DNA from: Trichechus inunguis
Taxonomy: Eukaryota
NCBI GenBank assembly: GCA_046562895.1
Contig: CM102171.1
Location: 24,215,509 to 24,279,508, forward strand
DNA: 64,000 nucleotides
Reading direction: 5' to 3'
Each line of letters begins with the position of its first letter. Within the stretch, counting starts at the first letter, position 1. The position numbers and the translations under genes were made by a program. The notes under the pieces were generated by a model. That model was not told the origin of the DNA. It worked only from the letters and a program-made list of their open reading frames with translations, and searched no databases. This document shows positions 1 to 19,202 of this stretch, in pieces.

Positions 1-59
1 AGCAACATGTACTGAGTGGAGGTAGGGCCAAAGACCTACATCTGGCAGGACAATGAGAG
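1..59 (+). pseudogene. MVP: MVP exon fragment (window-truncated), ...[19 protein letters not shown], with in-frame TGA at 13-15
   Basis: Matches human [21 protein letters not shown] with the Arg codon replaced by TGA. Donor AG|gttagt is at 60. Confidence 0.6.
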
Positions 60-300
60 GTTAGTGTGGAGTGGGTTATGTGTGGAGCCCTTGGGGCTAT
101 AGAGGGCCCATTAGGCTGGCTGTCATGGTCACAGTCCGCAGTCCCTTTCTTCCTTCTTTTAGGCAGGAGTGGCCCTCCATCAGGTGATGGGGGAATTCCT
201 GGGGGAATAGGTGGGCAGATTTCTCTCCCATTCACTGCCTCCTTTGGGAGTTGGCGGAGGCCCTGCCTTGGTCTTCACCCCTCTTCTTACCCTCCAGTAG

Positions 301-495
301 GGTACTGTTTGCCCCCGTGCCGTGGTGACTGTCCCCCCACACCACTACTGCACAGTGGCCAATCCTGTGTCCCGGGATGCCCAGGGTTCAGTGCTGTTTG
401 ACGTCACAGGACAAGTACAGCTTTGCCTTGCTGACCTGGAGATCCAGCTGGCCCAGGACCCCTTCCCCTTATACCCAGGGGAGATGCTGGAAAAT
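301..495 (+). pseudogene. MVP: MVP exon homolog (human aa ~43-108) with a 1-bp deletion leading to TGA at 326-328
   Basis: Acceptor ccagtag|G, then RVLFAP, then a frameshift; the other frame reads [58 protein letters not shown]|gt. The exon is 195 nt against an expected 196. Confidence 0.65.
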
Positions 496-2861
496 GTACC
501 TGGCTGCCTCCTCTATGCCCACTCTTCCTGTCCTGCCACCCTGTCCTAGGGCACCACACTACCTTCTGAGGGAAAAACAACCTGGGATAGTGGGAGGAGC
601 TGCGAAGGGACAGGTGCTTACTCTCAGCAGCATGGAATTGACTTATCCCCCCTTCACCATCCTCCCTCAATCACCCCCTCCTCCTCACATGCCCACAACA
701 GATGACCCCTCCTTTGTGAACTGTTGGCCTATCTCATCACCTAGTCTACCAGGCTCAGAGGCTGCTGGAAGCTCCCAGCCAGTTCTGGCACTAAATGACT
801 TGTGCATTTCATTCACACAAAGAGTGCCAGACAGTGTTGGGCAGTGACAAAGCAAAAATGGACAAGTGAAGATCCAGGCTCAGATGGCCTGTTCCAAGGG
901 AAGGCATCAGAGGCCTGAATTCCACCAATGCCTTGTCCGTGCTGCCCTAAGGCCCTGGGCCAGGAGCAGGGGGACATCCCACCCCCATTTCCTTAACTGT
1001 TCCTGCCCCATTACCTTCTTACCATTTTATGCTTTTTCACTCTGGATTCCTCTGCTAACTTGTGGTGGTTATTGATCCTGGGTACATGATAGCATGACCT
1101 GGGGAACTTTCTAAAGCATTGCTGCCCACTTAGATGCAAACAGCTTGAGGGGAATAGTGTGTATGGAGAAGTAATGATGAAGAATGTGATTAAAATGTTA
1201 CCCCTTGGAGAATCTGGGTTGGAAGGGTATATAGGAATTCTTTGTACTATTCTTGCAACTTTTCTGTAAATTTGAAACTGTACAAATTAAAAGTTAAACA
1301 ATAAATTCATGTCCTGGCCCTACCCCATACCAATTAAGTCAATCTCTGGGTAGAGGTGGGGCTAGTTTACACATCAATATTTAAAAGCTTCCCTGGACTG
1401 AGAGTAAAAGCTTTCCTTATCCTTGCCTTGTTTTAGCCTCTGCCGCCTCAAGGATTTGGGCTTCCCCAGCAGCACCTGCCTGTGGTGGCAGCTCATTCTC
1501 TCAAGCCCCAGGTGCTCTAGACCAGGAGGGCAAAGCTTTTCCCTCCTCGGAGCCCAATGCCACTAGACGTTCTTTTTTCACCATTTAGTCAACACTCCTC
1601 CTTCAAGGCATTCACCTCTGGCAGCACCATCGCTTCCTTTCTCACCATCACTGGCTCCGTGGGCCCCTGGCTCAGACCTCCCGGCCACCCCTATCCATCC
1701 TTCTCTCCTGCTAGAACCCTCACTAATATCCTTGCAGATGGCCTTGCCAACAGCTTGGCCTTATTGACCTCAACTCTGAGGACTTTCACAAGTTCTGTTC
1801 TGCTTCAGCCCCTGCCCAACTCCGTGTCCACTTTGGACTGGGTTATTCTCCCACCTGCCCCAACTCTGAGATCTGAACTCCATCCTCTTCCTTCCCACCA
1901 GTTCCCCTCCTTCCTTATCGCTCCTCTGTTGTCTTCTCACCCATCTCTGGATTCTCTTCCTGGTCTTTTTTTAGCTATTCCAACAGGACCTTATCACTTC
2001 CACACTTCTCACAAATTCTATTCCTGTACACTTGACCCTCTGGGACAAAACTGATCCTGGATCAGTGTCACATGCCATCTATCCTTTCCATTATCACACT
2101 CAGGAGGAAGGTTTCTGTTAGAAAAGCTTAGCCATGTGGACAGATGCCACCATGATGACAGTATTATAAATAGCTTATGGATTAAGGGGTTCCTTCCGAT
2201 CTAAGCCCTGTTCACCAGTTCTCTTCCTTTCTAGCCACCTTTCTTCTCATTGTTCTCTGTATACTTCTAAATATTTACAGCTGTCAACTCTCTTCCTATT
2301 TTCTACACCCTCACTTTTGAAGAACTTGGTTACTTACTTAGTTAAAAATTGAGGCCATCAGGCAATATCTGGGTTTGTGTCCCCTCATCTCCCTGCTACC
2401 TGTTGGAGGAGGAGGAGGAGGTTCCCTTCCATCCAGGTGGACCGAGGCTTCTGACCTATCCCACCTATTATGGATTAAACTGTGTCCACCCAAATAATGT
2501 ATGTCAACTTGGCTAGTCCATGATTCCCAGTATTGTGTGATTGTCCGTCATTTTGTCATCTGATGTGATTTTCCTATGTGTTGTAAATCCTACCTCTATG
2601 ATGATAATGAGGTAAGATTAGTGGACGTTATGTTAATAAGGCAGGACTCAATCTACAAGATAGGTTGTGTCTTAAGTCAATCTCTTTTGAGATATAAAAC
2701 ACAGAAGTGAGCAGAACCTCATACCACCAAGAAAGCAGCTCTGGGAATGGAGCACATCCTTTGGACCCAGGGTTCCTGCACCTGAGAAGCTCCTAGACCA
2801 GGGAAAGATTGATGACAAGGACCTTCCTCCAGAGCTGAAAGAGAGAGAAAGCCTTCCCCTG

Positions 2862-3920
2862 GAGCTGGTGCCCTGAATTTGGACTTCTAGCCTCCTACAC
2901 TGTGAGAGAATAAATTTTTCTTTGTTAAACCATCCACTTGTGGTATTTCTGTTATAGCAGCACTAGATAACTAAGACAGAATTTGGTATCAGGAATGGTG
3001 CTGCTCTAACAGATACCTAAAATGTGGAGGCAGCTTTGAAACTGTGAATGGATAGAGGCTGGAAGAATTTTAAAATGCCTAACAGTAAAAGCCTAGACTG
3101 CCCTGAAGAGAGTGTTGGTAGAATTATGGACATCAAAGACAATTCTGGTGAGGGCTCAGAATGAAGTGAGGAGAGCCATTACACTGGGGACAGTACAAAT
3201 GGTGAGAAGCAGCAGCAGAGAAGCAGCGGCAGCAGAACCAGGAGACAAGTGCAAGATGGCACTGGAGCCAACCCATGGAGCAAGAGAGCTGAGTGCCTTT
3301 GGCAGGAGGCTTCCTGGCATGCCTCTAGGCACTTGTTGGTGGAGCTAGGCTTGCCAACCAACAGAGCGAGAGAGCTGAGTGTCTTCCAGCCAAAGTTTAC
3401 TGGTGGAATGGGGTGCTTCCAAGCACTTATTGGTGGAGCTAAAGAGCTTTGAACACTTGACCCTGCAGGGCAGATGCAGGCAGTCCGGCCCAAGGGGCCT
3501 AGAGGCCAAGGAACCAGGAAGCAGAAGCTGAAGAAACAAAGAACACAGGAAGCAGAGCTGCCTCAGTCTCAAAGGGTAGGGCCACGACCTCTGGGGTCTC
3601 AAACGATGGAGTCACCACTCAAATGGACTAGGAGAATGTGGCCACCCAAATTAAAGGGACCAGAGTTGCCGGTTCCAGTAGAAAATTTGTATTCTCAATT
3701 TCACAGATAAAGAGGAATTTTTAAATTTTGGATTTGGAGTTGATTTAAGAATTTTGCTATGATATGATGGGATGAATGTGTTTTAAATGTGGCAGGGACA
3801 CACGTTGTCTTAGTCATCTAGTGCTGCTATAACAGAAATACCACAAGTGGCTTTAACAAACAGAGATTTATTTTCTCACAGTTTAGGAGGCTAGAAGTCC
3901 GAATTCAGGGTGCAGGATCT
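2862..3920. mobile_element. Non-autonomous DNA transposon (MITE-like) with ~100-bp terminal inverted repeats and an internal ~100-bp tandem duplication
   Basis: The segment 2871-2978 is the near-perfect reverse complement of 3806-3910 (ccctgaattTggacttctagcctcctacactgtgag...ccacttgtggtatttctgttatagcagcactagat). Internally, units at about 3290-3380 and 3380-3470 repeat (gagagctgagtg...ttggtggagcta). Confidence 0.6.
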
Positions 3921-4234
3921 AAGGGAAGGCTTTCTTTCTCTGTCAGTTCTGGGGAAATGTCTTTGTCTCTTCAGCTTCTCTTTCCAGATTACTTGGATAT
4001 CTCCATGTGGTTTAGCATCTACCTTCCCCCATCTTTGGTTGCTTAATCTGCTCCTTTTATATTTTGTAAGAGATTGACTCACACACACCCTATGCTAATC
4101 CTGCCTCATTAACATAACAGAGACAACCAGTTCCCAACTGGGATTATAACCACAGGCATAGAGTTTAGGATTTATGACATATATTTTTGGGGGACACAAT
4201 TCAATCCATAACACTTGGTTTTCTCTTCTGCAGG

Positions 4235-4450
4235 ACAAAGGACAGTACCTACCTCAAAGGGTTGTTGTGAAGATTAAATAATACATGTTCACAGCATTCT
4301 CAAGGTACTTGGCACATAGAAAGCTCAGTATAAGTATGAGCAACAAGCTGTTTGAGGGTAGGAGGTGATCTGTCTGGTTTACCACTCTGTCTTCACTGAG
4401 CTTTGGTTTCCTTATCTGTGAACTACATGAGGCTATCATGTCTCTTATAG
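4235..4450 (+). repeat. MIR SINE fragments; the 4258-4306 core is an inverted near-identical duplicate of 5948-6020
   Basis: MIR 3' region (gggttgttgtgaagattaaataatacatgttcacagcattctcaaggt) and a MIR core (ctgagctttggtttccttatctgtgaactacatgagg). Confidence 0.55.
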
Positions 4451-4560
4451 ATTGTTGTGCATATTAATAAATACTGGTGAAGTATACCCAGTCAGCTCCT
4501 GGCACTAAGTGGGTGGGTACTCAGTAAACCTTCCCCTCCCACGGCCTCGCTTCCACTCAC

Positions 4561-4687
4561 CGTCTCAATGGCCAAAGCCTCCAGTTTCAGCTTGGCCTGC
4601 AGGACGAAGTCTTCTCCCTCAATTCGTGCCGCCTCTGCGCGGGACTCAGCCTCTGCCTTGGCTGTCCCGGTGCTCTCCACAGCCGTG
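4561..4687 (-). pseudogene. MVP: MVP internal exon ([42 protein letters not shown]), intact but inverted
   Basis: Minus-strand translation matches human [42 protein letters not shown]. Acceptor is ctag|C, donor ACG|gtgagt, length 127 nt as expected. Confidence 0.7.
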
Positions 4688-4858
4688 CTAGAGAAGGAGG
4701 CAGCCTGGTCAGGCAGGACCCAGGAGGAAGCCCTGTCCTCCTCCCTGGCCTTGATTTAGGCTGTAGTAGCTTTCACCTGCCCCCTTCTCCCTGAGTAGCT
4801 GCTTTTCCGAGACCCTCGGTACCCTACCAACCTCTTCCTCCTCTAGTTCTCAGTGTAC

Positions 4859-4975
4859 CTCAGAGCCTCCAGCTCCAAGAGTTCCCTGCGAGCTCTTTCA
4901 GCTTCTGATTGGTCCAAGATCTTCTGCCTCTCAAGCCGGCCTCGGGCTTCTTGCTCTAGTCTCTGAGCTTCGTGC
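4859..4975 (-). pseudogene. MVP: MVP internal exon ([39 protein letters not shown]), intact but in inverted orientation relative to the rest of the locus
   Basis: Minus-strand translation matches the human MVP coiled-coil region. Splice sites are canonical (ccag|G ... AG|gtacac) and the length is 117 nt, as expected. Confidence 0.7.
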
Positions 4976-5935
4976 CTGGACAGGAGAGGGGACAGGTAGG
5001 ATGCTGGCAGGGGGCCAGATCTGGCACGTGAGCTCTAATGAAGGGACCACCAACCTATCTGTTACCCAGGACAGAACCCCCGCCCATGAAAGGCCCTCAG
5101 GGTGCAAACAAGGGAGCAGTGTGGCTGTTCCCTGTCAGCCAGGTGCATTCTAGGCCCTGGGGGAACACAGCATGATTGATGCCCTGCTGTCACACAACTT
5201 ACCTTCCAGTGGGGGCAAGAATAAACAAAGATAATGTCAGACAGTGGGAAGTACCTTGAAGGTAGTAGAATGGGTGCTGTGAGAGCACATCTGGGCAAAG
5301 GGCACTGCTTCCCTTGGGGCAGAAAGAAAAAGGCTCTCCAAGGAGGTCATCTTTGGGCTGAGGCTGAAGAAGAAGCCAGCCTTGCAGAGTTCGGATTAGC
5401 ATTCTGGGCAGAGGAAGCAGCCAGTGCAAAAGGCCTTAGGGTGAGAACAAGCTTGCATTCAGGAGCAGAAAGACTGCAGCATGTGAGCGAGGGGAAAAGG
5501 CTGGAAGGCAGGTGGCAGGGCAGCAGGGCTGGACCTCAGAGGGCATGGAAGGTCACAGAAAGGAGCTTGGGTTTTATCATGAGCAATGTGGGAAGTCACA
5601 GGAGCAGGGGTGGTATCTGAATCACACTGAGTCTACTACCTGTTGAGTAGACAAAGGATCCTTGGGGGCCAGGATGGCAGTAGGCAGACCATTAAAGGTG
5701 CCATGCAATCCAGGTCCTGGTGGTGGAATGGTGATGGGGACCCCAGAGTGAAGGCCTGGTCTGCAGTTAATGTCACTGAACTGTACTAGTGAAGACTGTA
5801 GAAATGGCAAATGTTCTGCTACCTATATACTTAACCACAATAAAAACAAACAAAAACCCCATGGAGCACAGTTCCACTCTAACACACGTGGTTACCATGA
5901 GTCAGAGCTGATGCAGGAAAAAAAAAAAATAGAAG

Positions 5936-6200
5936 CTTACTCCTCATACTTATATTGAGCTTATAAGCACCTTGAGAATGCTGTGAACATGTATTATTTA
6001 ATCTTCACTACAACCCTATGAGGTAGGTACTGCCCTTTGCCGTGCAAAAGAGGAAACCCAAACTCACAGGTGAAATGACTTGCCCAAGGTCATACAACTA
6101 CTAAATGGATTTAAATTTGGAAAGTCTGGCTCCAGAGTCTTTGCTGTTGACCAGGGTCCTGTACCATTTCCATGTGCTGCTGGAATGAGCCAAGTCTGAA
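5936..6200 (-). repeat. MIR SINE, near complete; its 3' end shares derived substitutions with the 4258-4306 copy
   Basis: ccctatgaggtaggtactgccctttgccgtgcaaaagaggaaacccaaactcacaggtgaaatgacttgcccaaggtcatacaact matches the MIR consensus in reverse orientation. Confidence 0.55.
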
Positions 6201-6649
6201 TGAAGAGGCAGATGAACTTGAGGAGATAAATGCAGTGAAGGATGTAGGGTATGGTAGCTTATTGATGAAGATGGTCTGAAGTTTTTCTGAGCTGCTGACT
6301 TGAAAGATAAGTGTAAGTAAGAACTGAAAAGTGCTGGAGAATGTTGCCCAAGTTCACACACAGCTGAGAGGGAGTAAGGCTGTCGTGGGAACACCAGCCA
6401 GCCTGTAACCTTGACTTCATCCCTCATGTGAAGCTTGCTCTCCAACTTCCCTGACCCTTCTAGCCACAAAGTTTACCTCTGTCCAATGTTCGTACCCAGC
6501 CTGCAGGCCCAACATGGAATGCCTGCCTTCCCAGTCCTTGAAGGCCTTCCAAGGAGCTTCCAAGAATTCCAGCCCTTTGATCTTTTCCATCTTGGAATTA
6601 TTTCTGTCCTAGACAGTATTGTGTATTTTGGCACTCAGTTTACACACTC

Positions 6650-8450
6650 TGGCATTGTCTTGTCTTAATGTCTATTTTGTCTGATATTGATATAGCCACT
6701 CCTGCTCTCTTTTGGCTACTCTTAGTATGGAATATTTTTTCCATTCTTTCCCCTTCAACCTACCGGTAGGTCTACAGTGAGTCTTTTGTAAACAGCATGT
6801 AGTTGGAACATGTTTCTTTGTCCATTTTGCCTTTCATTGGAGAGCTTAATCTGTTTACATTAAAAGTAATTACCAATAAGGAAGGACTTACTTCTGGTAT
6901 TTTGCTATTTATTTTCTGTGTGTCTTCTACATTTTTCATCTCTAATTTCCTCCAATACTGCCTATTTTTGTGTTTAGTTGATTTACTGTAGTGAACGCTT
7001 TTGATTGTTTTTTCATTTTGTTTTGTGTATATTTTTTAAATATTTTCTTTGCAGTTACCAGGGTAATTACATTTAACATTCTAAATTTATAACAACCTAG
7101 TTTAAATAGAAAACAACTTCAAAAAACATACAAAAACTCTGCTCTTATTCTGTTCCTCCTCCCCTCTTTATGTTGTTGTTGCAAGTTACATCTTTGTATA
7201 TTGTGCCTCCAGTGACATAAATTTATCATTATTTTTATGCATTTGTCTTTTAAATCATGTAAGAAATAACAAGTAGCATTACAATACAAAATTACTAGAA
7301 ATATGACCTTTATACTTATTCATTAAATTACCTTTACTAAAGATCATTTTTTATTTCTTCATACATCTTTGAGTTACTGTCTAGTGTCCTTTCTTTTCAA
7401 TATGAAGTGCTCTCTTTAGCGTTTCTTATAGGGCAGGTCCTGTGGTAACAAACTCCCTCAGCTTTTGTTTATTTGGCAATGTCTTCATATCACCCTTATT
7501 TTTTAAGGACAGTTTTGCCAGATATAGAATTCCTGTCTGATAGTTTTTTTTTCTTTCAGTACTTTAAATATGTCATCCTACTGCCTTCTGCCCTCCAAGA
7601 TTTCTAAGGAGAAACCAGCACTTAATCTTATTGAGAATCCCTTGTTTGTGATGATTTGCTTCTGTCTTGCTAGTTTCAAGATTTTCTCTTTATGTTTGGT
7701 TTTTGAGAGTTTGATAATAATACATCTCACTGTGGCTCTCCTACTTGGAGCCCTATCCTACTTGGAGTTCGTTAAGCTCCTTGAATGTGTAGATTTATGT
7801 CTTTCCTCAGATTTGGGATGATTTTGACCACTTTTCTTCAAATAGTCTTTTTGTTTTTTCTCTCTCCTCCTTCTAGGACTCCAGTAGTGCGTATATTAGT
7901 CAGCTTGATAGCGTCCCACAAGTCCCTTAGGCTGTATTCATTTTTCTTCTTGTTCCTCAGTCTCAATAATCTCAATTGCCTTATCCTCAAGTTCATGAAT
8001 TCTTTCTTCTACCAGTTCAAATCTGCTGGTGAGTTCTTCCAGTGTCATTTTCATTTCTGTTATTATACTTTTAAACTCCAGTATTTCTGTGTGGCTCTTT
8101 TAAAAAAATTCTTATTGAAATTCTAGTTTTCTTCCTGTATCATTTTCCCAATTTCCTCTAGTTCTTTGTTCGTTTTTCTTTAGCTCTTTGAGCATATTTA
8201 GTACTGTTGTTTTAAAGTTTTTATCTAGTAAGAATTATCTGTCCTTCCTCAGGGATGATTTCTGTCACTTTATTGTGGTCTTTTGCATGGGCTAGTCTTT
8301 CTATTTCTTCATATATCTTGTTATTTTTTGTTGAAACCAGGACATTTGATGATTACACGGTGGTAACTCGGAATCAGCTTCTTCCCCTTCCCTAAGTTTG
8401 TTCTTCTTCTTCTATTGTTGTTATTGTTATTTTAATTGTTGAAGGATGTA
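6650..8450 (-). mobile_element. LINE-1 fragment in antisense orientation
   Basis: AT-rich sequence with motifs typical of L1 read in antisense (ttgccagatatagaattcctgtctgatagttttttttctttcagtactttaaatatgtcatcctactgccttctg...). Confidence 0.45.
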
Positions 8451-9514
8451 GTGATCTGCTCCAACACGAGGCCCTCACCTGAAGGCACCAACTGTTGCCA
8501 TTCCAACACCTGGCTCCCTGTCTGGGTGCACCAGTCACTGTAGCTACCCCAAGATGGCTGTGCCAAACTGGGGAGAAGGCGGGACACAGACAGGTGGAGA
8601 ACCAATGCTTTCTTACAGTTTATATGTAACCTTTTCTTCATTCAGCATTTGCTTAGATGCTCTAACTCTTTGACTAATTTCCACAGTTCCGAGACTATTG
8701 ATTCCGTTAATTTCTGCTTGTTATTTCAGATTTTGTTGTGGGGGAATCGGAGCATGCTGCTGCTTACACTGCCATCTTGCTCCACCCTCTGGCATTATCT
8801 TGTTTTCCAAACTCTTAGCTGTCTCCCCTATTTCCCTTTGAGGGTCCAGAGCATGCCTACTTCTTCAGACTCTTAGTTGTCCCCCTAGTAACTTTGAGGG
8901 GCCAGAATGTGTCTACTTCTCTATTCTGATCCATAGAGAATGTGTTTGGATCCTGGTAGAAATTTCAGGTTCCTATTTAAGTGGGGTGGTAGGCCTCTCT
9001 CCAACTCTGGTACTTTGTACTACCAGCTTCTCCCACCATAGCCAGTCCTGACTATTTTCACTATAGTCCCTGAAGCCAGGTAGGATACCAAATAGGTACT
9101 CTAATATAAAGCCCTATTCAAGTACTTTGTATTTTACAAAGTTCTTTGCCTATATAAATTCACCTTTCTTGAAGGTAAGGATTATTACACCTATTTTATA
9201 GAAAAGTACTCAAATATTAGCCAGCTTTATAACAGGTATTGCATATGTTTTACATGTATGATCTTTTTTAATGCTTGAAATCCCCTCAAGGTAAGCATTA
9301 TCTCCATTTTACAGGTAAGGGATCTGAGGCTCAGATTAAGGGGCTTCCCATGCACCAAATAAAAGGTGGCATAGCCAAGATTCATGCCTAACTGACTGCA
9401 GCTTTACAACTCCATCCCCTTCACCTTAGTTCCATTAGGCTTGTGGCTAGAACAACTTGCTGGATAATTCCAAGGGGCCAAAGCTAAAAGAATTCTGAAT
9501 TTTTTCTCTTCCAG

Positions 9515-9693
9515 GCTGAGCTCCAATGAGTACAGAAAGTGCAGGAGCTACAACTAGTCTATGCCCAAGCCCAGATGGAGCTGGAGGTGAGCAAGGCCCA
9601 GCAGCTGGGTGAGTTGGACGTAAAGAAGTTCAAATAGATGACAGAGGCCCCAGGACCATCAGGGACCTTGCTGTGGCTGGGCCAGAGATGCAG
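9515..9693 (+). pseudogene. MVP: MVP penultimate exon homolog with TGA (9527-9529), TAG (9635-9637), an internal frameshift and donor GT>AT
   Basis: Translation is [43 protein letters not shown], then a frame shift into TIRDLAVAGPEMQ. The exon is 179 nt against 189 expected, and the downstream dinucleotide is 'at' instead of 'gt'. Confidence 0.7.
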
Positions 9694-10412
9694 ATGAGAG
9701 TTGGGGAAGGCAGGAGAGGACGGGTATTTGTCTTGGGACCAGACTAGAACAAAGAAGGCAAGGCCAGGGAGGCAAATACATCTTTCTAGATGTCTAGAAA
9801 GTTGTTGAGGCAGAGGGATGAGGTCAGACAGCGACTGAACTGCCCCTGTATCATGTATCATGATTTCTGTATCATTTGAGCACAGTATCATGCTCAAATA
9901 CTGTGCTTCCCTTATGTGCCAGGCACTGTACTAGACCCAGTGGTGAGCTGAAGCTCATGGGGAGCTTCAAACAAATAGGACAGCATCAGTCTGTGACAAG
10001 TGCTTCAAAAGAAGTCAAACAGGGTGGTGAGATGATGAGGGGCTGTCTCTTCAGATTAGTCATTTTAAGTAAAGTCATTCTGAGCACTTGAGCCCTCCAT
10101 GGAGTTGAGAAGAGTTTCCTACCAGAGCGTCCAAGTGAAAAAACACAAAGAGGACAAACTTGGTACATTTAATGAACAGGAAAGACTCTGGCTGCAACAG
10201 AGCAAGCAAAGGTGTGAAATGCTGAGCTGTTGGGGAGGTAGTCCCTCAGGTTTCCCTTGTGCTGTTCATTTTTCACTGACTGATCCTTTGAGGATGGGGT
10301 GGCAGACAGCTACAGTGTCAGGCAAGAGTGGCTGGGGGCCTGTCCTAGAGAGGCAGTCATGGAGATAGGAGACGTGACCCCATCTTCTCACCCTCCTCCT
10401 CCCTCCCTCCAG

Positions 10413-10650
10413 GTAAAACTGCTCCAGAGCCTGGGCCTGAAATCAGCCCTCATCACTGACGGCTCCACTCCCATCAATCTCTTCAACACAGCCTTGGGTC
10501 TACTGGGGGCAGGATCTGAGGTTCAGTCCCCAGCCAGGAAGGTGGCTGGTGGGCCCAGTCCCCAAGAAGGCTTGCTTCTCAAGTGCCCCCCCGCTCTTCC
10601 AGCTGTTAGGAACACCCACATGGTGATGAGGAGTACCCCTGTAACCTTGA
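10413..10650 (+). pseudogene. MVP: MVP terminal exon homolog ([32 protein letters not shown]...); the conserved stop is lost and the ORF runs on to 10715
   Basis: A good acceptor (ctccctccag|GTAAAACTG) is followed by a C-terminal domain homologous to human MVP. No stop falls at the human position. Confidence 0.6.
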
Positions 10651-11134
10651 GACAGTTACTAGGGACTACTCTTGTTTGTAACGTGGAGAGGAAGCTGAGG
10701 CAGGGAGAAGACTAACCTGAAGTCACAGTGATAGGTAGTCAGCTTTCCTGGACCTCGGTTTGGGGAGATAAAGCCACAGGTGGGAGGACAAGGCCTGCCT
10801 GGCTAGCCCAGCCAACCCCTCTGGGATGGCTCCTACACTAGCAACATCTTTTCTCACTGCCAGTTCCTCCTGCTGCCCAGCCTGGCCAGGAAGCCCTCCC
10901 TGGAGGTCTAACCCTCCAGCTGTCAGTCATCCATCCCAGCCTCCCACCCCCCTATCCTTTGGGATGCTTCTTTTGGCGCCACCTACTGGTCAAATCGTGC
11001 ACCTGTAGGGCCTGTCAGTATGTCCCTCCTCAGATCAGGGAGGAGGATCTTGCCCAGGGGCAGTAGGAACTGGAGTAGGTCCCTGAGCTTCTGGTCTGGG
11101 CTCTTTGGAAGCATGGAGGGAGGGAGCTAACATA

Positions 11135-11340
11135 ATCAGTTGTTGTTAGCTGCCGTGGAGTCGACTTCCAACCCATGGTGACCCCATGTACAATGGAACA
11201 AAATTCTGTCCGTGCCATCCACGTAATAGGTGCGGATTGAATTGTTCTGATCCATATGGTTTTTATTGACTGATTTTCAGAAGTAGAATGCCAGGTCTTT
11301 CTTCAGAGTCTAAGTCTAGAAGCTCTGCTGAAAGGGGAAG
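11135..11340 (+). mobile_element. AfroSINE-family SINE
   Basis: tgttgttagctgccgtggagtcgacttccaacccatggtgaccccatgtacaa matches the afrotherian SINE head. Confidence 0.6.
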
Positions 11341-12299
11341 GAGCCAGGCGCAATCAGTCTGGTTGCACAAGTGGATGCTATAAGGTGCACCAGTCCCTTC
11401 CAGGTAGTAGAGCTATAGATGCTAGGCATGCCTGGTTGGTGCTCAGGGAATGAAAAGATCCCAGGGGAGGAGGGAAAAGCTTGGGCTTACTCACCATATG
11501 GCTACAGGAGGCAACTCAACCTCTCTGACCTCCTTTCCTTGTCTATGAGATGGGCCAGCAATTCCCCTACTGAATAGGGTTGGTGTGAAGGTGCAAATGT
11601 AATGGATGACTTCTTCTTAGGGTCTTATTCCTTTTCCCCTACTGGGGCCTAACACCATGGGCCTTCTATCTTTTTAAGCTGAGTTGCATTTGTGTGGCCA
11701 ATGGCTCCACTCAAGTATGAGTTTGTTGAGGCAAGGACTGTCTTTGTTTAGTCCATAGCACTCAGTGGTGCTGGCTCAATGTTGATGGAATAGGTAAGTG
11801 AGTCAGCCTCCCATCCTCCCAAAGCTCTCCTACCTTTTCCCTTAGGAGAGGCGATTAATTTAGAGCTCTGAATCTGGTTCCTGGTGCATATTAAGTGTTA
11901 AAAGTTAGCATTGTTTATTACTAAGGGCCTCTAGGGATGGGTGACAAGTAGGCAAGATTGGCCAAAGTGGATATGTGGTAGGTTCCTTCCCATCTCAGTC
12001 CCCGCTCCTATGGGCATCCTTTGACCTTGTCATTGCTAATAACCACATAGCCTCTAAAACCTCAACCTTGCTGCCCCATCCTCACCTTCCAAGCAGCCAT
12101 TTCTCTACCTCAAAGCTTCAGTGTTAACCTCAACAACTTTCTCATCATCCACAACCTCCTTTTCATTTTCATCTTTGTCCAGCTTAAAGGGTCTATCAGT
12201 GCAATCACTGACTTGAAACCTCCCTTAACTCCCTCGCCCCTCCCCCTCCCCATGACACTTAGTGGGAAAATCCCATCCCTTCTTCTACCAACCACCCCT

Positions 12300-12326
12300 T
12301 GCCGTGCCTGCCTGCCTGCCTGCCTG
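12300..12326. repeat. (CCTG)n microsatellite
   Basis: gcctgcctgcctgcctgcctgc. Confidence 0.8.
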
Positions 12327-13775
12327 CGCCTGACTAGCTGCATGCTGTTGGAAGAGAAATACCCCACCCTGCTGATAGAGCTCATTTGAAACTCATGGCA
12401 GCAAATTTCAAGGGATGCCTAATGGGCTCTGACTACCCTTCTCTATCTTGTGTGAGATTCCCCTTTCAAGACAACCATTCACACCTCCTCTCTTCTCAAC
12501 TACACCTCGGCCCACTTTCTCTCACCTCATTGAGAAAATAGAAGCAAATTGGGCAGGAAAGTCCGCCCCCTCCCAGCAGCAAATCTAACAAACCATTGGC
12601 ATCTGAACTCCCTGTCTTCCTTCCTGTTCCCACAGAGGACGTGCCCTAGCTCCTCACTGCCCACCCCACCCCCCACCCCTGCCCATAGATCTCACCCCAT
12701 CAAGGCCTCCAGGGCTGCACTCCATGGCATCTGCAGCCTAGCCTGACTGCTACATCTACCTCGCAGGATTGTAAGACCCAATTAGGTAACATGGGAAACC
12801 GCTCTTTAAATTGTATGCATGAGGATGGACCCAGCACTGACTGTAGAGTGGGACAGATACATCCCAGTGACAGGCAAATAGGCCTTGCTGGAAATAGTGG
12901 AGCTCAGTTTACATCAGAGCCAGATTCCAAGTCAATCCCTTCAGGGACAAACACTTGTTACCAAATTACTCTTGAAAGTCTCTTAAATTGCCCATAAAAT
13001 ACAGTACAGTATGATCTCCGATTAAATTCAACACAGCCCATCTGTTTTTCTCCAGCATTGGGCTTTTCTTTGGTTGAGTACCAGATGAAGTAACTGATTA
13101 GTTTAAGGACCCATTTTATAAGAATCTATGTCTTTAAACAGCAAAATCACATTCAGCATGGTCAGATGCTATTTATCAAACCTATTTCCTCTTCTTCCTA
13201 GGCCCACACACGAATCTATATTTCACAACCTCCTTGCACTTCGATGCATCCCTGTGACTGAGTTGTAACCAATGAAATGTGAATGGAAGTAACATGTGCT
13301 AATTCCATGCCTTCCCAAGCCTCATGCATGATGCAAACAGGCAGGGCAATCTTGGAAGCCATGTGTTAACAATAGCGGAACTCTAAGATGGGAGCAGCCT
13401 GAGTCCCTGAATCACTGCTTGCAGGAGAAGCTTCCCAGTCAGGAGCACCTGACAGGCCTTTACATGAGTTAGAAATCAACTTCCTTCGTGGTAGAGCCAC
13501 CACACATTTTGGGGTTTGTTACAATAGCTAGTGTTACTTTTGATCACACTTTGAGACCCAAGACCACCTGAGAGAACAGCAGTCTTGGTAAGATCTCATG
13601 CCCTCTCTGAGGCACAGGCTTATTGAGTGGAATGAGCAAATGCATTTTCTGCATGGTAGTTATTCCTTCTGTCCACAAGCATATAGTTGAATTCCAGAAA
13701 GTTATACTGCACATACAGTGTGACTCCACTAGATTCCGTAGATCAAATATAGTGACTCCAGGACCCAATTCAGAA

Positions 13776-13936
13776 ACCCTGGTGGTGTAGTGGTTAAGTG
13801 CTATGGCTGCTAACCAAAAGGCTGCTAACCAAAATCTACCAGGCGCTCCTTGGAAACTCTATGGGGCAGTTCCACTCTGTCCTATAGAGTCACTATGAGT
13901 CAGAATCAACTTGACGGCAACGGGTTTGGTTTTTTT
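13776..13936 (+). mobile_element. AfroSINE (tRNA-derived SINE)
   Basis: ggtggtgtagtggttaagtgctatggctgctaaccaaaaggct...tatagagtcactatgagtcagaatcaacttgacggcaacgggtttggtttttt. Confidence 0.8.
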
Positions 13937-14248
13937 GGGACCCAATTCAGCCCAGACTTCCCCTATTCCCCACTCCCTACCCTAAACCCCCAAGGGGTCA
14001 CAGGTCACAGGTTCCAGGCTATGAATGCAGGGTCTGTGCTCTGCAGGTTCTTCTTGAGTTCAGTCCAGCCACTGGACATGGGACAGAAGGTAGCAGACTG
14101 ACTTCCAGACCTCTCCCATGGGAGAGGGGCTAAAAAGCCCTTCCTGGGGTCCTCAGTGCTTCTACTTGAGTGGAAGGTGCTCACACTCTCCTCCCCAATT
14201 CGCCCTCCTTTTCTTAGCTCACACAGAGCTGGATAAGTTACAGACTTC

Positions 14249-14256
14249 TGACGTCA
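14249..14256. promoter_or_regulatory. Perfect CRE palindrome TGACGTCA in a small CpG-rich patch (14.25-14.76 kb) between the MVP remnant and CDIPT
   Basis: Exact 8-mer; the surrounding 500 bp is moderately CpG-rich. Confidence 0.25.
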
Positions 14257-16215
14257 CTGTAAGCACTAAGGAGCCAGTTGGGGCTGCGGGAACCGGCAGG
14301 GCAGAGGGTTCCCTGCTCTTAGGCCTGGGCGAGTGCTCAGAGGGCTCATTTGGCTGGAGAAGACAGCTGACTCGCAAAGGACAATGGGAAGGAAAAAGAG
14401 CTCCAGAGCAGAAGCTGGGAGGGCACCTTTCCTACCGCCCTCTCAGGGCGCAAGCTGCCCCTTATTCGTCCCCCACCTTGACTGGGAGCAGGAAGCCGGA
14501 CAGGGGCACACTGGAAGTTGGAGGGGCAACTCAGCTTTGTGCATTATCCTTCTCGAGCCAAAATCCTTCCTTGCCACTGCCCTGCTTAAAGCCTTTCAGT
14601 GTCCATCCCAACTGTCTCCAAAAGAGGTCCAAGACGGTCTGCTGCAGCGTAGCATTGTTCACAGTAGCCGGACCTGATTAAATAATTCACGGAATAGTGT
14701 GCAGCCATTATGAGGACTGCCGAAACGGCGGCGCTGAGTACCCTCAGTGTTAAGAGGGCAGGCTCTGGAGCCAAACTGGCCAGTTTGGGACCCTCTCAGG
14801 GACCTCAATTTCCTGTCTGTAGAATGAGCACAATAACAGGATTATCATATCGTATGTAACGGTTCTTAGATGAAATAACACAAAAAAGCACTTAGAACAG
14901 CGGTAACTTGTTAGCAGGGCAGCGAATATATAGAATGAATTTTAAAATATGGAAATCTCTATGTACAGATGTAAGGGATTTATTTAGACAAATACACAAG
15001 AAATTAGTAGTAGTGGTTGCCTCTAGGGAGAGCTGACAGCTTGAGGCGGGAAGAGACTATTTTGTCATCCTTCTACAGTGTTGGAAGTTTTATGTGAATA
15101 TTGTACCTATTTAAAACAAAAATCCCCTCAGCAGCTCCGTGTGGCCCTCAGGATAAAGTCTAAATGCCCTACAAGGCTCCTCAGGCCGTCCTGCTGGCTT
15201 CTTCTGCCTCATCTCTCATCAGCGCCCCACCTCACCCCCAGCACTTAAGTGTTTCAGCTGAATCGATCTACTTCCATTTCTGCAGTTTCCCAGGGTGCTC
15301 TCTGGCCTCCCTGCCGCTGTACTATTCCCTCCTCTGCTAGCCCTTCCCTCCTCAATCCCTATGCAGCTTGGGTTACCCACCCCCTTCACCAAACCTAAGC
15401 GAGGTTTCTACTCCCTAACCAATCTGTTTTTGCTCCTCTGTGACTGTGACCTCCAAGAGGGCTCGGAAGCCAGCCGCACAGCTCCCCACTGAGTCCCCTG
15501 TGCCTAGAACAAGAGTTGAAGCTCAATACACATCAGCTAAGTTTCAGCTCTTCTGGACACCAACTGCCTCTTGGGCCACTTGGCTGAGCTTTATGAGGAT
15601 TAAATGAGTAACATCTGCAAAGAACCCCCAGTACAGGGTCTGGCAGATGGCAGGCCCAATATAGTTTTCAAAAAGAAAGCAGGTGCCAGGCGGCAGAGAA
15701 AGCTCAAATAGTAGGAGTAGCTGTTAGGGACTGATGCCCAGAACAATGTCTAGTACATGCTAGGTGCTCAAAAACTGTTAAAATTGCAGACTTCTGGGCC
15801 CACTATCCCTAGAGTACACTTTGAGAACCCAACCGATCTGTTCACAAATATTTACTAAGTAGCTACTATACGGCACGTTAAGGTTAGTCTTCACTCCAGG
15901 GGCAGAGAAGGGAACAAGAAAAGTAGGTGCCCTCATGGAGTTTACATCCTAGTGGGGGTAGAAAATACCAAGTATACAAATAAATGTAGACAATGTTATA
16001 AATAACATTATAAAGCAGGTGGGTAGAGACAACATGGCATGTGCTTGGGTGGCAGAGAGGGCCTTTGAGGGTACCGTGGAACAGCAGAAAGGAGCCAGTC
16101 AGCAAACTAGGGACCCAGCTCCATTTTCCTTTTTTTCCCTAAGGCTCCCCTGGACCCAGGCCCTGGTCCAAGAGTTTCTCAAAGGAAACCAAGTCCAGAT
16201 AGTGAAGTTCCCACC

Positions 16216-16221
16216 TTTATT
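16216..16221 (-). promoter_or_regulatory. CDIPT: Candidate CDIPT polyadenylation signal (AATAAA on minus)
   Basis: A tttatt on the plus strand lies about 530 nt downstream of the stop. Confidence 0.3.
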
Positions 16222-16749
16222 ATCAAGGCTTCCAGGTCCAGGGTAGACAGGACAGAGGAAACTGCAACAGAGAAGGATCTAGAAGGTCCCTTCCCTCCTG
16301 GGTGTGGTGCCCCCAGGCTGCCTCTGCCCAGGGGTAGAAGCCTGACTCCCCTGCCTTTTGGGGACCCTGGCCCCTACATCATCTCCCTCACTCAAGTGTC
16401 CCTAAAATCTTGGCCAAGCCAGCCTCCAGGGCTGTGTCAGCAGGGCATGACAATGCCCAATCCTCAGGCCTCCTGGGGCCCCAGGGTATCATCACCTGTA
16501 TAGGTGGGGCCCTTGAGTATCCTTCCTCAACAGAAGCCCAGGTCCTTGGGGCTCACAGGGGTGGGACTAGTCCTCAGGAGTTTGGAGAACATGACATCAC
16601 CAAAGAGAGGCTGACCCCTATCCCAGTGGGCTGGACAACACATTAGGAAGATGTAAGACTGGGACCTCCTAGGAGGGGAAGGGGAGCCGTGTGGCACAGT
16701 GAGACTCCCAGGGCAAGTGGGTGCTGGGGGACTGGAGGTTCCAGGGTCA

Positions 16750-16892
16750 TTTCTTTTTGGCACGGTCTGCCGCGTCCAGGGCAGCCATGTTGCGGGCGGC
16801 TGTGATCAGGTGGATGACACTGATGACGGACTTCAGCAACGCAATGGGGGCAGTGATCCAGAGGCCCATGCGGAAAAGACCCACAGAGCCAA
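16750..16892 (-). CDS. CDIPT: CDIPT exon 6 (last): VGSVGLFRMGLWITAPIALLKSVISVIHLITAARNMAALDAADRAKKK*
   Basis: Close match to the human CDIPT C-terminus. The stop is RC(tca) at 16747-16749 and the acceptor is cccacag|TT. Confidence 0.9.
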
Positions 16893-17022
16893 CTGTGGGA
16901 AGGAAGCAGGGGAGAGACAAAGGAAATGAGATGCAGGGACCGGCCTAGGAGTCTGAGGCCTTCACCTCCCCTGGCAGGCCAGAAGCCCCTCCCACCCTCC
17001 TGTCCAGCCCCTCAGCTCCTAC

Positions 17023-17104
17023 CTAGTGGTCCCTCGGAGAAACTGAACAGATAGAGGAGGCAGTAGAAAAGCTCATTTCCAGCACACAGAACGAACAGAG
17101 CAGG
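17023..17104 (-). CDS. CDIPT: CDIPT exon 5: PALFVLCAGNELFYCLLYLFSFSEGPL
   Basis: Homology to human CDIPT; acceptor tgcag|CCT and donor G|gtagga. Confidence 0.85.
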
Positions 17105-17487
17105 CTGCACAAACAGAAAAAAGGCTGCTTAAGCAAGAGGGCAGGGCAGTATACCCCTTCCTGCCCGGCCCACTCACTCAGGGAAAGGGAGCCCAAACTC
17201 TCAGGCAGGTAGGTAGCAGGGAGGAACATATGGGGGGGGGAGGGGCGGGGGAAGGGGTGTCACAAGCACAAGGGCCTCATTTCCATTTGCTGCCTGGAAC
17301 AATTCATAGTCCTCCCCACCAATCCTGCTCTTTCGTGTCTCAGCTTACAGGCTCCTCCTTCCCTGGGAGACTGGGCTGGCTGTCCCTCTAGGCTGCCTCT
17401 CCTAACTTGGGACCAGGGCTCGGACCAGGGCGCAGCCTAAGATCTGGCATAAGCTAAGTGAATAAAGGGAGGGGTAGAAATACTCAC

Positions 17488-17569
17488 TCTGGAGGTATAG
17501 TAAATCCGAAGCACCGGATTCCCAGACAGGTCGATCATTTTGTGACTTTCACTGCCTCGGACCACAGAG
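17488..17569 (-). CDS. CDIPT: CDIPT exon 4: SVVRGSESHKMIDLSGNPVLRIYYTSR
   Basis: Homology to human CDIPT; acceptor ccaag|C and donor AGA|gtgagt. Confidence 0.85.
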
Positions 17570-18043
17570 CTTGGGGAGTAAGTAGGGGGTATCCATGAGT
17601 TTACATTACCACTAACATCCCTCTAAGTCTCACATCGACCCCATGTAGTAGGTACTGGGATTGCCTCTGTTGTACAGATGAACTGGGGCACAGATGAGGA
17701 CCAGAGTATCTTGTCCAAAGCCCCATGATTACCTAGTTAGGGGCAGAGTCAGGATTCAAATGCCACATTCGAAAGCTCTCACACCCCTTCTCACGAGCTA
17801 TTACCCATTTGAAATCCTGGAAAATCCAGCCAGAAAGGTCTTAAGAATTGCTTAATTCAACTGTAAATAGGACTGACACTGATTCAGAGAGGGTCAGGAC
17901 TTGGCATGGGCAAAGCAGAGGCTCAAAAATGAAGACCCCCCAAGAAGCCATCCCAGACACCCTCCCATTTAGTCTCACCCCTCCCACCGTAGTGTCTTCT
18001 TCAACCTGTCTACTCCTCCAGGCATCCCAGAATCGAACCAGAC

Positions 18044-18197
18044 CTGTGGAGGTGCAGCCAGTGGCTGGCCACGTCCAAGCTCATACTGAGCTGAAAGAGA
18101 AGGGTTGCTCGAGGGTACAGCAGGGCCAGGTTGACCAGCAGACACATGGTGGAGCAGCGGTCCGTCAGCATATCCAGCATGGCCCCAAACCGGGTCC
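18044..18197 (-). CDS. CDIPT: CDIPT exon 3: GTRFGAMLDMLTDRCSTMCLLVNLALLYPRATLLFQLSMSLDVASHWLHLH
   Basis: Homology to human CDIPT; acceptor tttttcag|GG and donor AG|gtctgg. Confidence 0.85.
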
Positions 18198-18929
18198 CTG
18201 AAAAATCAGGACTATTAGATGGGAAGGGGCTGTTAGGCGCAATGGACCCACGACACATGCCATAGTTGGTGTATCACTCTGATGCAGACTCTAGAAGATT
18301 GGAAGTGTTCACTATTCACTGCCTGGGGAGAACAGCAGGCTGATATCAGTGGGAGTGAGAGGTCAATGGGCAAGAGTCACCATGATATGAAATGAGAAGG
18401 CAAGGGCATGTAGAGGGAACAGTTTAGGATGGGGGTGGACAGCTATCTCTACAACTCATCAATCCCAGAGCCAAGGCTCCAGGTCAAGACAGAGAGACTT
18501 GAAGTCTCAGTGGAAGTCTCAGAAGTGCGTCTGGAGAACAGATTTAAAAAAATAAGTCAGTCTTCCAGAAGCCATGGTTTCCCTCTCCACTCTTCCTCTA
18601 AACATGCCTTCCAGAATCCCTATTGCTTGTGTCTGGCACACAGTAGGCCCTCAGAAAACACTTGTTGGATTCATATTCAAAGAGACCCTCAGCACTGCCA
18701 CAGCCGTTCAGTCTTGCTATCCGACATCCCTCACAATCAGTTAAGTGTTTTTCAAGAACTAGCTTAAATCTCTTCTGATACAAAACCGGGCCATTCTGTT
18801 TGCTTTCTATAGAGATGGGAATGACAGAGCCCTTCAGACTCCCCAGTTCCGGCCCACCCTGAGATCCTGACGAGGAAGGGGGCAGGGAGTTGTCGGGCCC
18901 CAAAGCTGGCTGGGAGAGGTGTCTGTCAC

Positions 18930-19064
18930 CTTGATTAAGGGCTCGAGCAGCGTGTCCATCGAAAGCATCCAGAAGTCCGCTGAGCAGGTAGAAGGACGAG
19001 GCCGTGAGGGGGCAGCAAGGCATGAAGTAGAAAGAAATGATAGCGAAGACGATCCGGGCATAAC
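18930..19064 (-). CDS. CDIPT: CDIPT exon 2: YARIVFAIISFYFMPCCPLTASSFYLLSGLLDAFDGHAARALNQ
   Basis: Homology to human CDIPT (CDP-alcohol phosphotransferase motif region); acceptor cccaag|GT and donor G|gtgaca. Confidence 0.85.
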
Positions 19065-19159
19065 CTTGGGATGGGGAGGGGGGAGACAGACGGTGGGGTT
19101 CACGGACTCGCCCAAGGTTCGTTGCCCCAGTTCGCCCTAGGGCCGCAGGCAATACTCAC

Positions 19160-19202
19160 CGATGAGGTTAGGCACGAACAGGAAGACATTTTCGCCTGGC
19201 AT
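19160..19202 (-). CDS. CDIPT: CDIPT exon 1 (start codon): MPGENVFLFVPNLIG
   Basis: ATG = RC of 19200-19202, matching human MPDENIFLFVPNLIG, with donor G|gtgagt. The six exon lengths sum to 639 nt (213 codons), as in human CDIPT. Confidence 0.85.

Follow-up and report, generated by a model that had tools for sequence, protein, structure and literature searches.

A decayed MVP copy beside CDIPT in manatees and an intact MVP gene beyond KCTD13

The DNA analyzed here, a stretch of 64,000 nucleotides from the manatee Trichechus inunguis (assembly GCA_046562895.1, contig CM102171.1, positions 24,215,509 to 24,279,508 of the forward strand; hereafter the window), begins with disrupted fragments of the MVP gene. 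A first-pass annotation of the window had taken these fragments for a unitary pseudogene. MVP builds the vault particle, and mammals otherwise keep it; its loss in one of them would be striking, but the claim is false. A search for other copies revealed an intact MVP past KCTD13, contradicting loss. We consider it likely (probability of about 0.8) that the first 11.3 kb of the window hold the parental MVP in decayed form, at its ancestral site, and that a unit of about 25 kb was copied past KCTD13 in the ancestor of the afrotherians.

MVP blocks were located by tblastn and their lesions were read base by base against the intact manatee gene, contained in the sequence of the working MVP locus of T. 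manatus (L002; gene at JH594776.1:2,607,158-2,626,711). The window starts inside the first coding exon of the relic, the ATG of which would lie 66 nucleotides upstream. The exons that can be recognized are:

1-59, plus strand: coding exon 1, codons 23-42; TGA in frame at 13-15, where codon 27 of the working gene is CGC; donor GT retained at 60-61.
301-495, plus strand: exon for amino acids 43-107; 1-bp deletion near 320 leading to an in-frame TGA at 326-328; acceptor AG (299-300) and donor GT (496-497) kept.
4975-4859 and 4687-4561, minus strand: two inverted exons for amino acids 670-708 and 709-750, both open.
9515-9693, plus strand: exon 14, amino acids 751-810; five lesions; sequence identical in the T. 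manatus assembly.
10413-10715, plus strand (exon proper to about 10627): last exon; no internal stop; the normal stop is missing owing to a 5-bp insertion close to the end of the exon, so that the open reading frame extends to 10715.

Base-level alignment bore out every individual lesion that the first-pass annotation had listed, from the TGA codons in place of arginine at 13-15 and after the 1-bp deletion to those of exon 14, as well as the absence of lesions from the two inverted exons. Exon 14 contains two stops (CGG to TGA at 9527-9529 and CAG to TAG at 9635-9637), a 7-bp deletion near 9646, a 3-bp deletion at the acceptor and a GT to AT change of the donor at 9694-9695. Its sequence was compared with an independent assembly from T. 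manatus latirostris (TriManLat1.0, scaffold JH594776.1; L001), which aligns to window positions 6808-29221 with 99.3% identity. Over 9440-9760 the two are 100% identical. Thus, the exon 14 lesions are not assembly errors; they are genuine and older than the divergence of the two manatee genomes. The further statement that all blocks other than the inverted exons are disabled holds for most of them and is slightly overstated for the last exon, where the 5-bp insertion is the only defect.

The largest defect, absent from the first-pass list like the 3-bp deletion at the exon 14 acceptor and the 5-bp insertion, is the loss of exons 4 to 11: tblastn with MVP gave no match to amino acids 108-669 anywhere in the window, and where the intact gene has 10.4 kb (L002 12535-22997), the window has 1.75 kb of repeat-containing DNA unrelated to it (2465-4217). 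Elsewhere the intron-exon structure is preserved. Introns align with those of the working gene over 1-2464, 4218-8570 and 9161-10625, and most splice sites are retained. A preserved intron-exon structure, together with a functional paralogue in the same genome, is what characterizes a duplicated, non-processed pseudogene.

The intact copy, retrieved with a full-length MVP query, is annotated as a protein of 885 amino acids in T. manatus (XP_004386701.1), in T. inunguis (KAM9584228.1) and in dugong. KAM9584228.1 is encoded on the same 51.36 Mb T. inunguis contig as the KCTD13 and CDIPT genes of the window and differs from the T. manatus protein by one residue. Placement by coordinates was made in T. 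manatus, where the gene shares its scaffold with CDIPT (2,702,405-2,704,860). It is oriented like the relic fragments, and about 31 kb separate its start codon, which falls past the far end of the window, from that of KCTD13. All of its exons were found, without stops. The manatee protein is identical to that of dugong at 880 of 885 positions (99.4%) and to that of elephant at 842 of 885, against Kimura two-parameter (K2P) distances of 0.026 and 0.116, respectively, in the introns. This gap between protein identity and intron divergence indicates strong purifying selection on the working gene. Judged from sequence, MVP is not lost in manatees, which keep an intact and constrained copy.

Two observations were set aside. 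A conceptual translation of the relic, 300 amino acids long, had retrieved matches of about 180 to 520 amino acids and no manatee protein, a hint of gene loss that was dropped when the full-length query found manatee MVP. A short conceptual translation of a pseudogene can miss its full-length paralogue in such a search (the matches listed apparently span about 0.6 to 1.75 times the query length) and falsely suggest that the gene is lost. Logan contigs of 885-886 amino acids were considered as manatee MVP transcripts and rejected, their sequences differing, by eye, from the sirenian protein.

Alignment of the relic with the working locus defined four homologous segments (S1 to S4) and the DNA between and beyond them:

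1-2464, plus strand: S1, homologous to L002 10067-12534 with 88.8% identity; a mosaic of old and sirenian-type sites.
2465-4217: non-MVP DNA at the place of exons 4-11; it contains an interspersed repeat whose inverted arms occupy 2814-2929 and 3852-3967.
4218-5767, minus strand: S2, inverted, corresponding to L002 24532-22998; carries the two open exons.
5934-8570, plus strand: S3, intron 13 homologue (L002 24401-27009, about 78% identity).
9161-10625: S4, aligned to the working gene.
10621-11330, plus strand: 3' flank homologous to that of the working copy (L002 29638-30433, 71%); the likeness of the two copies ends here.
11331-16749: ancestral MVP-CDIPT spacer; it is collinear with its counterparts in armadillo, bat and Echinops but unrelated to the DNA flanking the working MVP of afrotherians.

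Within the first 100 nucleotides or so of S3, positions 5965-6058 are an inverted copy of 4217-4310 with 91% identity, which identifies the rearrangement as an inversion with a duplicated breakpoint. The repeat in the exon 4-11 gap (within 2471-3967) has inverted arms of 116 nucleotides that are 83% identical; it is also present in the elephant, manatee and dugong loci (for example at L003 1916-2430 and at L002 27679-28089 and 36163-36576).

Gene orders were taken from record coordinates in manatee, Echinops and Tenrec and set against those of armadillo and the bat Myotis daubentonii. In armadillo, MVP on the plus strand is followed 7.7 kb on by CDIPT on the minus strand, tail-to-tail; the order in the bat is PAGR1, MVP, CDIPT. 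The arrangement of the two species can be written PAGR1>MVP><CDIPT, and in both the MVP-CDIPT spacer is collinear with the window from 10.7 to 16.75 kb. The fragments therefore occupy the ancestral position of MVP, in agreement with the first-pass view of them as the degraded true ortholog: pseudogene and CDIPT are tail-to-tail, and the 3' flank of the pseudogene continues into the same spacer. T. manatus, Echinops and Tenrec ecaudatus all have CDIPT, SEZ6L2, ASPHD1, KCTD13 and then the working MVP, in this order. KCTD13 and the working MVP are arranged head-to-head, with about 31 kb between their start codons in both T. manatus and T. ecaudatus. For elephant the evidence of position is flank homology only, its MVP having the same flanks as the working copy of manatee. 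The working copies of manatee, dugong, elephant and tenrec match the armadillo and bat loci only over a span that begins about 4.9 kb before the ATG and closes less than 1 kb after the stop codon. Elephant, tenrec, armadillo and bat each have an intact MVP. Thus, the derived site is found in the afrotherians compared, by coordinates in manatee, Echinops and Tenrec and by flanks in elephant.

A tblastn search of the afrotherian MVP flanks with PAGR1 gave no match; comparison with the bat locus accounts for this, the copied unit not reaching as far as PAGR1. The lack of an MVP remnant within 10 kb of CDIPT in Echinops could be read as the absence of a relic from this species; this reading was rejected, the Echinops spacer being longer and the flank sequence ending just before the expected site. 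In the Echinops telfairi record (AAIY03000006.1; L007), MVP is annotated as two partial proteins of 485 and 130 amino acids, while Tenrec ecaudatus has a full protein of 890. The split is probably a problem of assembly or annotation rather than biology. No paper was found on MVP in Afrotheria or manatees, or on the relic, in a literature search that did not extend to the gene order itself. The position of MVP beside KCTD13 in afrotherians could be a clade-wide rare genomic change.

The age of the relic was assessed segment by segment from K2P distances to the working genes and from counts of informative sites with armadillo as the outgroup. Class A sites are those at which the relic shares a derived state with sirenians, class B sites place it outside sirenians and elephant, and class C sites join it with elephant and give the noise level:

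S1, 1-2464: K2P 0.105 to manatee, 0.162 to elephant; 32 A, 31 B, 5 C; A and B sites interleaved.
S2, 4218-5767, inverted: K2P 0.075 to manatee, 0.130 to elephant; 35 A, 13 B, 4 C; A sites mostly in the middle, B sites confined to the edges.
S3, 5934-8570: K2P 0.20 to manatee, 0.21 to elephant; 13 A, 21 B, 7 C.
S4, 9161-10625: K2P 0.161 to manatee, 0.154 to elephant; 8 A, 31 B, 9 C.
4625-5364, minus strand: gene conversion tract; 9 differences in 739 nucleotides from the working MVP.

For comparison, manatee and elephant differ by a K2P distance of about 0.115 in every segment. A neighbour-joining tree of S4 has the same branching as the site counts: sirenians and elephant exclude the relic with 80% bootstrap support. 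The support value of 3.7 at one other clade results from the rooting and was disregarded. Together, the site counts indicate that the background of the relic is older than the split between sirenians and elephant and that patches were copied from the working gene later on. The most recent of these can be delimited within S2. Positions 4625-5027 differ from the working gene of manatee at 2 of 403 nucleotides, in contrast to 12.5% in the flanks on both sides (binomial P about 7e-21), and from dugong MVP at 7. Since this stretch is closer to manatee than to dugong, the conversion must have taken place after the two lineages separated; the two inverted exons are open because of it. A tract of near-identity between diverged flanks and a signal that is discordant along the sequence are the marks of interlocus gene conversion, evaluated here with a binomial rather than a GENECONV-type test.

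These data suggest the following scenario. In an afrotherian ancestor, an MVP unit with about 4.9 kb of DNA before the ATG and less than 1 kb after the stop, PAGR1 excluded, would have been copied to the far side of KCTD13. The daughter copy would then have taken over as the working gene, freeing the parental copy from selection and leaving it presumably without function. In manatees the parental copy has lost exons 4-11, undergone the inversion with a duplicated breakpoint around exons 12-13, and gained stops, frameshifts and a dead splice donor while losing its stop codon. Patches of it have been overwritten by gene conversion with the working gene as donor, most recently after manatee and dugong separated.

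The most serious competitor is a young, sirenian-specific partial duplicate that landed beside CDIPT, the afrotherian gene order having arisen from an unrelated rearrangement that left no relic. S1 and S2 lend this some color, as they are nearer to sirenian than to elephant MVP and have 32 and 35 sites, respectively, in common with sirenians. However, these sites are interleaved with older ones in S1 and gathered in a central tract in S2, the pattern of gene conversion, and S3 and S4 are equally far from sirenian and elephant MVP, with more sites placing the relic outside both than joining it to sirenians (21 against 13 in S3, 31 against 8 in S4). Furthermore, relic and flank are collinear with armadillo and bat through the 3' end of the gene and into the spacer, and re-insertion at exactly the old site in the old orientation is implausible. 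We regard a young duplicate as unlikely.

Very unlikely, in our estimate, is a duplication that predated the placentals and was followed by reciprocal loss, Boreoeutheria and Xenarthra keeping the copy on the CDIPT side and Afrotheria that on the KCTD13 side. The present-day arrangement would be the same, and the deep divergence of the oldest relic segments (K2P of 0.20 between S3 and manatee) would fit. This account requires extra independent losses, however, and the S4 tree groups the relic with the afrotherian MVPs and not outside armadillo. The armadillo and bat MVP loci were compared with 10-kb flanks, a span that excludes KCTD13-side DNA.

The remaining two possibilities can be given almost no weight. 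A unitary pseudogene, with MVP and vault particles lost and no working copy left, would account for lesions that are real, common to two assemblies and at the syntenic position, but is contradicted by the complete gene on the same T. manatus scaffold, with all exons open, by its annotation in T. inunguis and dugong and by its conservation far past the neutral expectation. An assembly artefact, in which mis-joining or collapse produced a false duplicate of the real gene, might be suspected from the 403-nucleotide stretch of near-identity and from the single assembly behind positions 1-6807, but most of the relic is 12-20% off the real gene, far too much for haplotypes or collapse, window positions 6808-11330 are reproduced in TriManLat1.0, and the near-identical tract is inverted, grades into diverged flanks and lies inside DNA orthologous to the armadillo locus.

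Several points weigh against the origin of the relic as the parental copy of an afrotherian relocation. The window begins inside the first coding exon, and the presence of PAGR1 upstream of the relic is a prediction. The evidence for a relic comes from manatee, the flank of Echinops stopping just before the place where one would be expected. The deletion and inversion lie in the part of the window (1-6807) known from one assembly, L001 starting at 6808. On the S4 tree, tenrecs diverge before the relic does, whereas a duplication in the afrotherian stem predicts the opposite order; we assume that early gene conversion or long tenrec branches are responsible. As regards a split before the afrotherian crown radiation, the relic predates the separation of sirenians and elephant yet branches after tenrecs, with conversion and long branches as confounding factors. 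Finally, the status of both manatee copies was read from sequence.

In its widest form, the relocation account would make the transfer of MVP from the CDIPT side to the KCTD13 side a shared-derived change of all Afrotheria, with the relic kept recognizable for more than 60-90 million years by recurrent conversion. We lean slightly towards this extension. If it is true, the inverted, still-converting segment would be a live recombination substrate, exchange at which could flip the CDIPT-KCTD13 block, and the same segment could yield antisense MVP RNA.

CDIPT, SEZ6L2, ASPHD1 and KCTD13 were also described at first pass as free of such lesions in the exons translated. This was confirmed for CDIPT and KCTD13, the spliced products of which match annotated proteins exactly; SEZ6L2 and ASPHD1 were checked at the level of identity, by Sushi and Asp_Arg_Hydrox Pfam matches on two open reading frames, and not exon by exon. 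For KCTD13, of the two manatee proteins only that of T. inunguis is identical to the spliced product. The gene that anchors the synteny is:

16750-19202, minus strand: CDIPT, intact; spliced product identical to XP_004386710.1 (T. manatus) and KAM9584230.1 (T. inunguis).

A stop at 16922-17107 (minus strand) in one tblastn alignment of CDIPT is due to read-through into an intron and was discarded as a lesion, proper splicing giving exactly the annotated manatee protein. The T. inunguis accessions KAM9584227 to KAM9584230 run in the order KCTD13, MVP (two isoforms) and CDIPT, with SEZ6L2 and ASPHD1 not between them. This differs from the positional order in T. manatus and may reflect annotation numbering. 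The MVP-CDIPT spacer contains an element of about 160 nucleotides (13773-13933) resembling a short interspersed nuclear element, several copies of which, 81-84% identical, are present in the manatee, dugong and elephant MVP loci.

The case carries a warning: a syntenic pseudogene is no proof of gene loss where the gene has moved. The relocation of MVP is a candidate clade marker for Afrotheria, and the relic offers a clean example of an old pseudogene refreshed in part by conversion, in which single exons can look deceptively intact in screens for gene loss.

The relic is an object of a known kind, a duplicated, non-processed pseudogene: the remnant that a relocated gene left at its parental site, renewed in part by gene conversion. 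Pseudogenes linked to a working paralogue by gene conversion include CYP21A1P/CYP21A2, GBAP1/GBA1 and SBDSP1/SBDS. Like these, the MVP relic keeps introns and splice sites, has multiple lesions and contains a sharply bounded tract of near-identity, and its working paralogue lies on the same chromosome, about 90 kb away. Unlike in these pairs, it is the parental copy, at the ancestral locus, that is dead here and the daughter, at a new site, that is alive; moreover, the converted segment is inverted and the only direction of transfer seen is from working gene to pseudogene. The MVP case also resembles duplicative transposition and positional turnover, in that a single unit with its promoter is found at a new site in one clade and a decaying remnant at the old one. 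It differs from duplicative transposition in general in that the gene moved by only about 100 kb, inside the same conserved gene block, and that the relic is still recognizable after probably more than 60 million years, apparently with the help of repeated conversion. With a unitary pseudogene such as GULO in primates, the relic shares disablement at a position orthologous to that of a gene working in other mammals; what sets it apart is the working copy in the same genome, the absence of which defines the unitary class.

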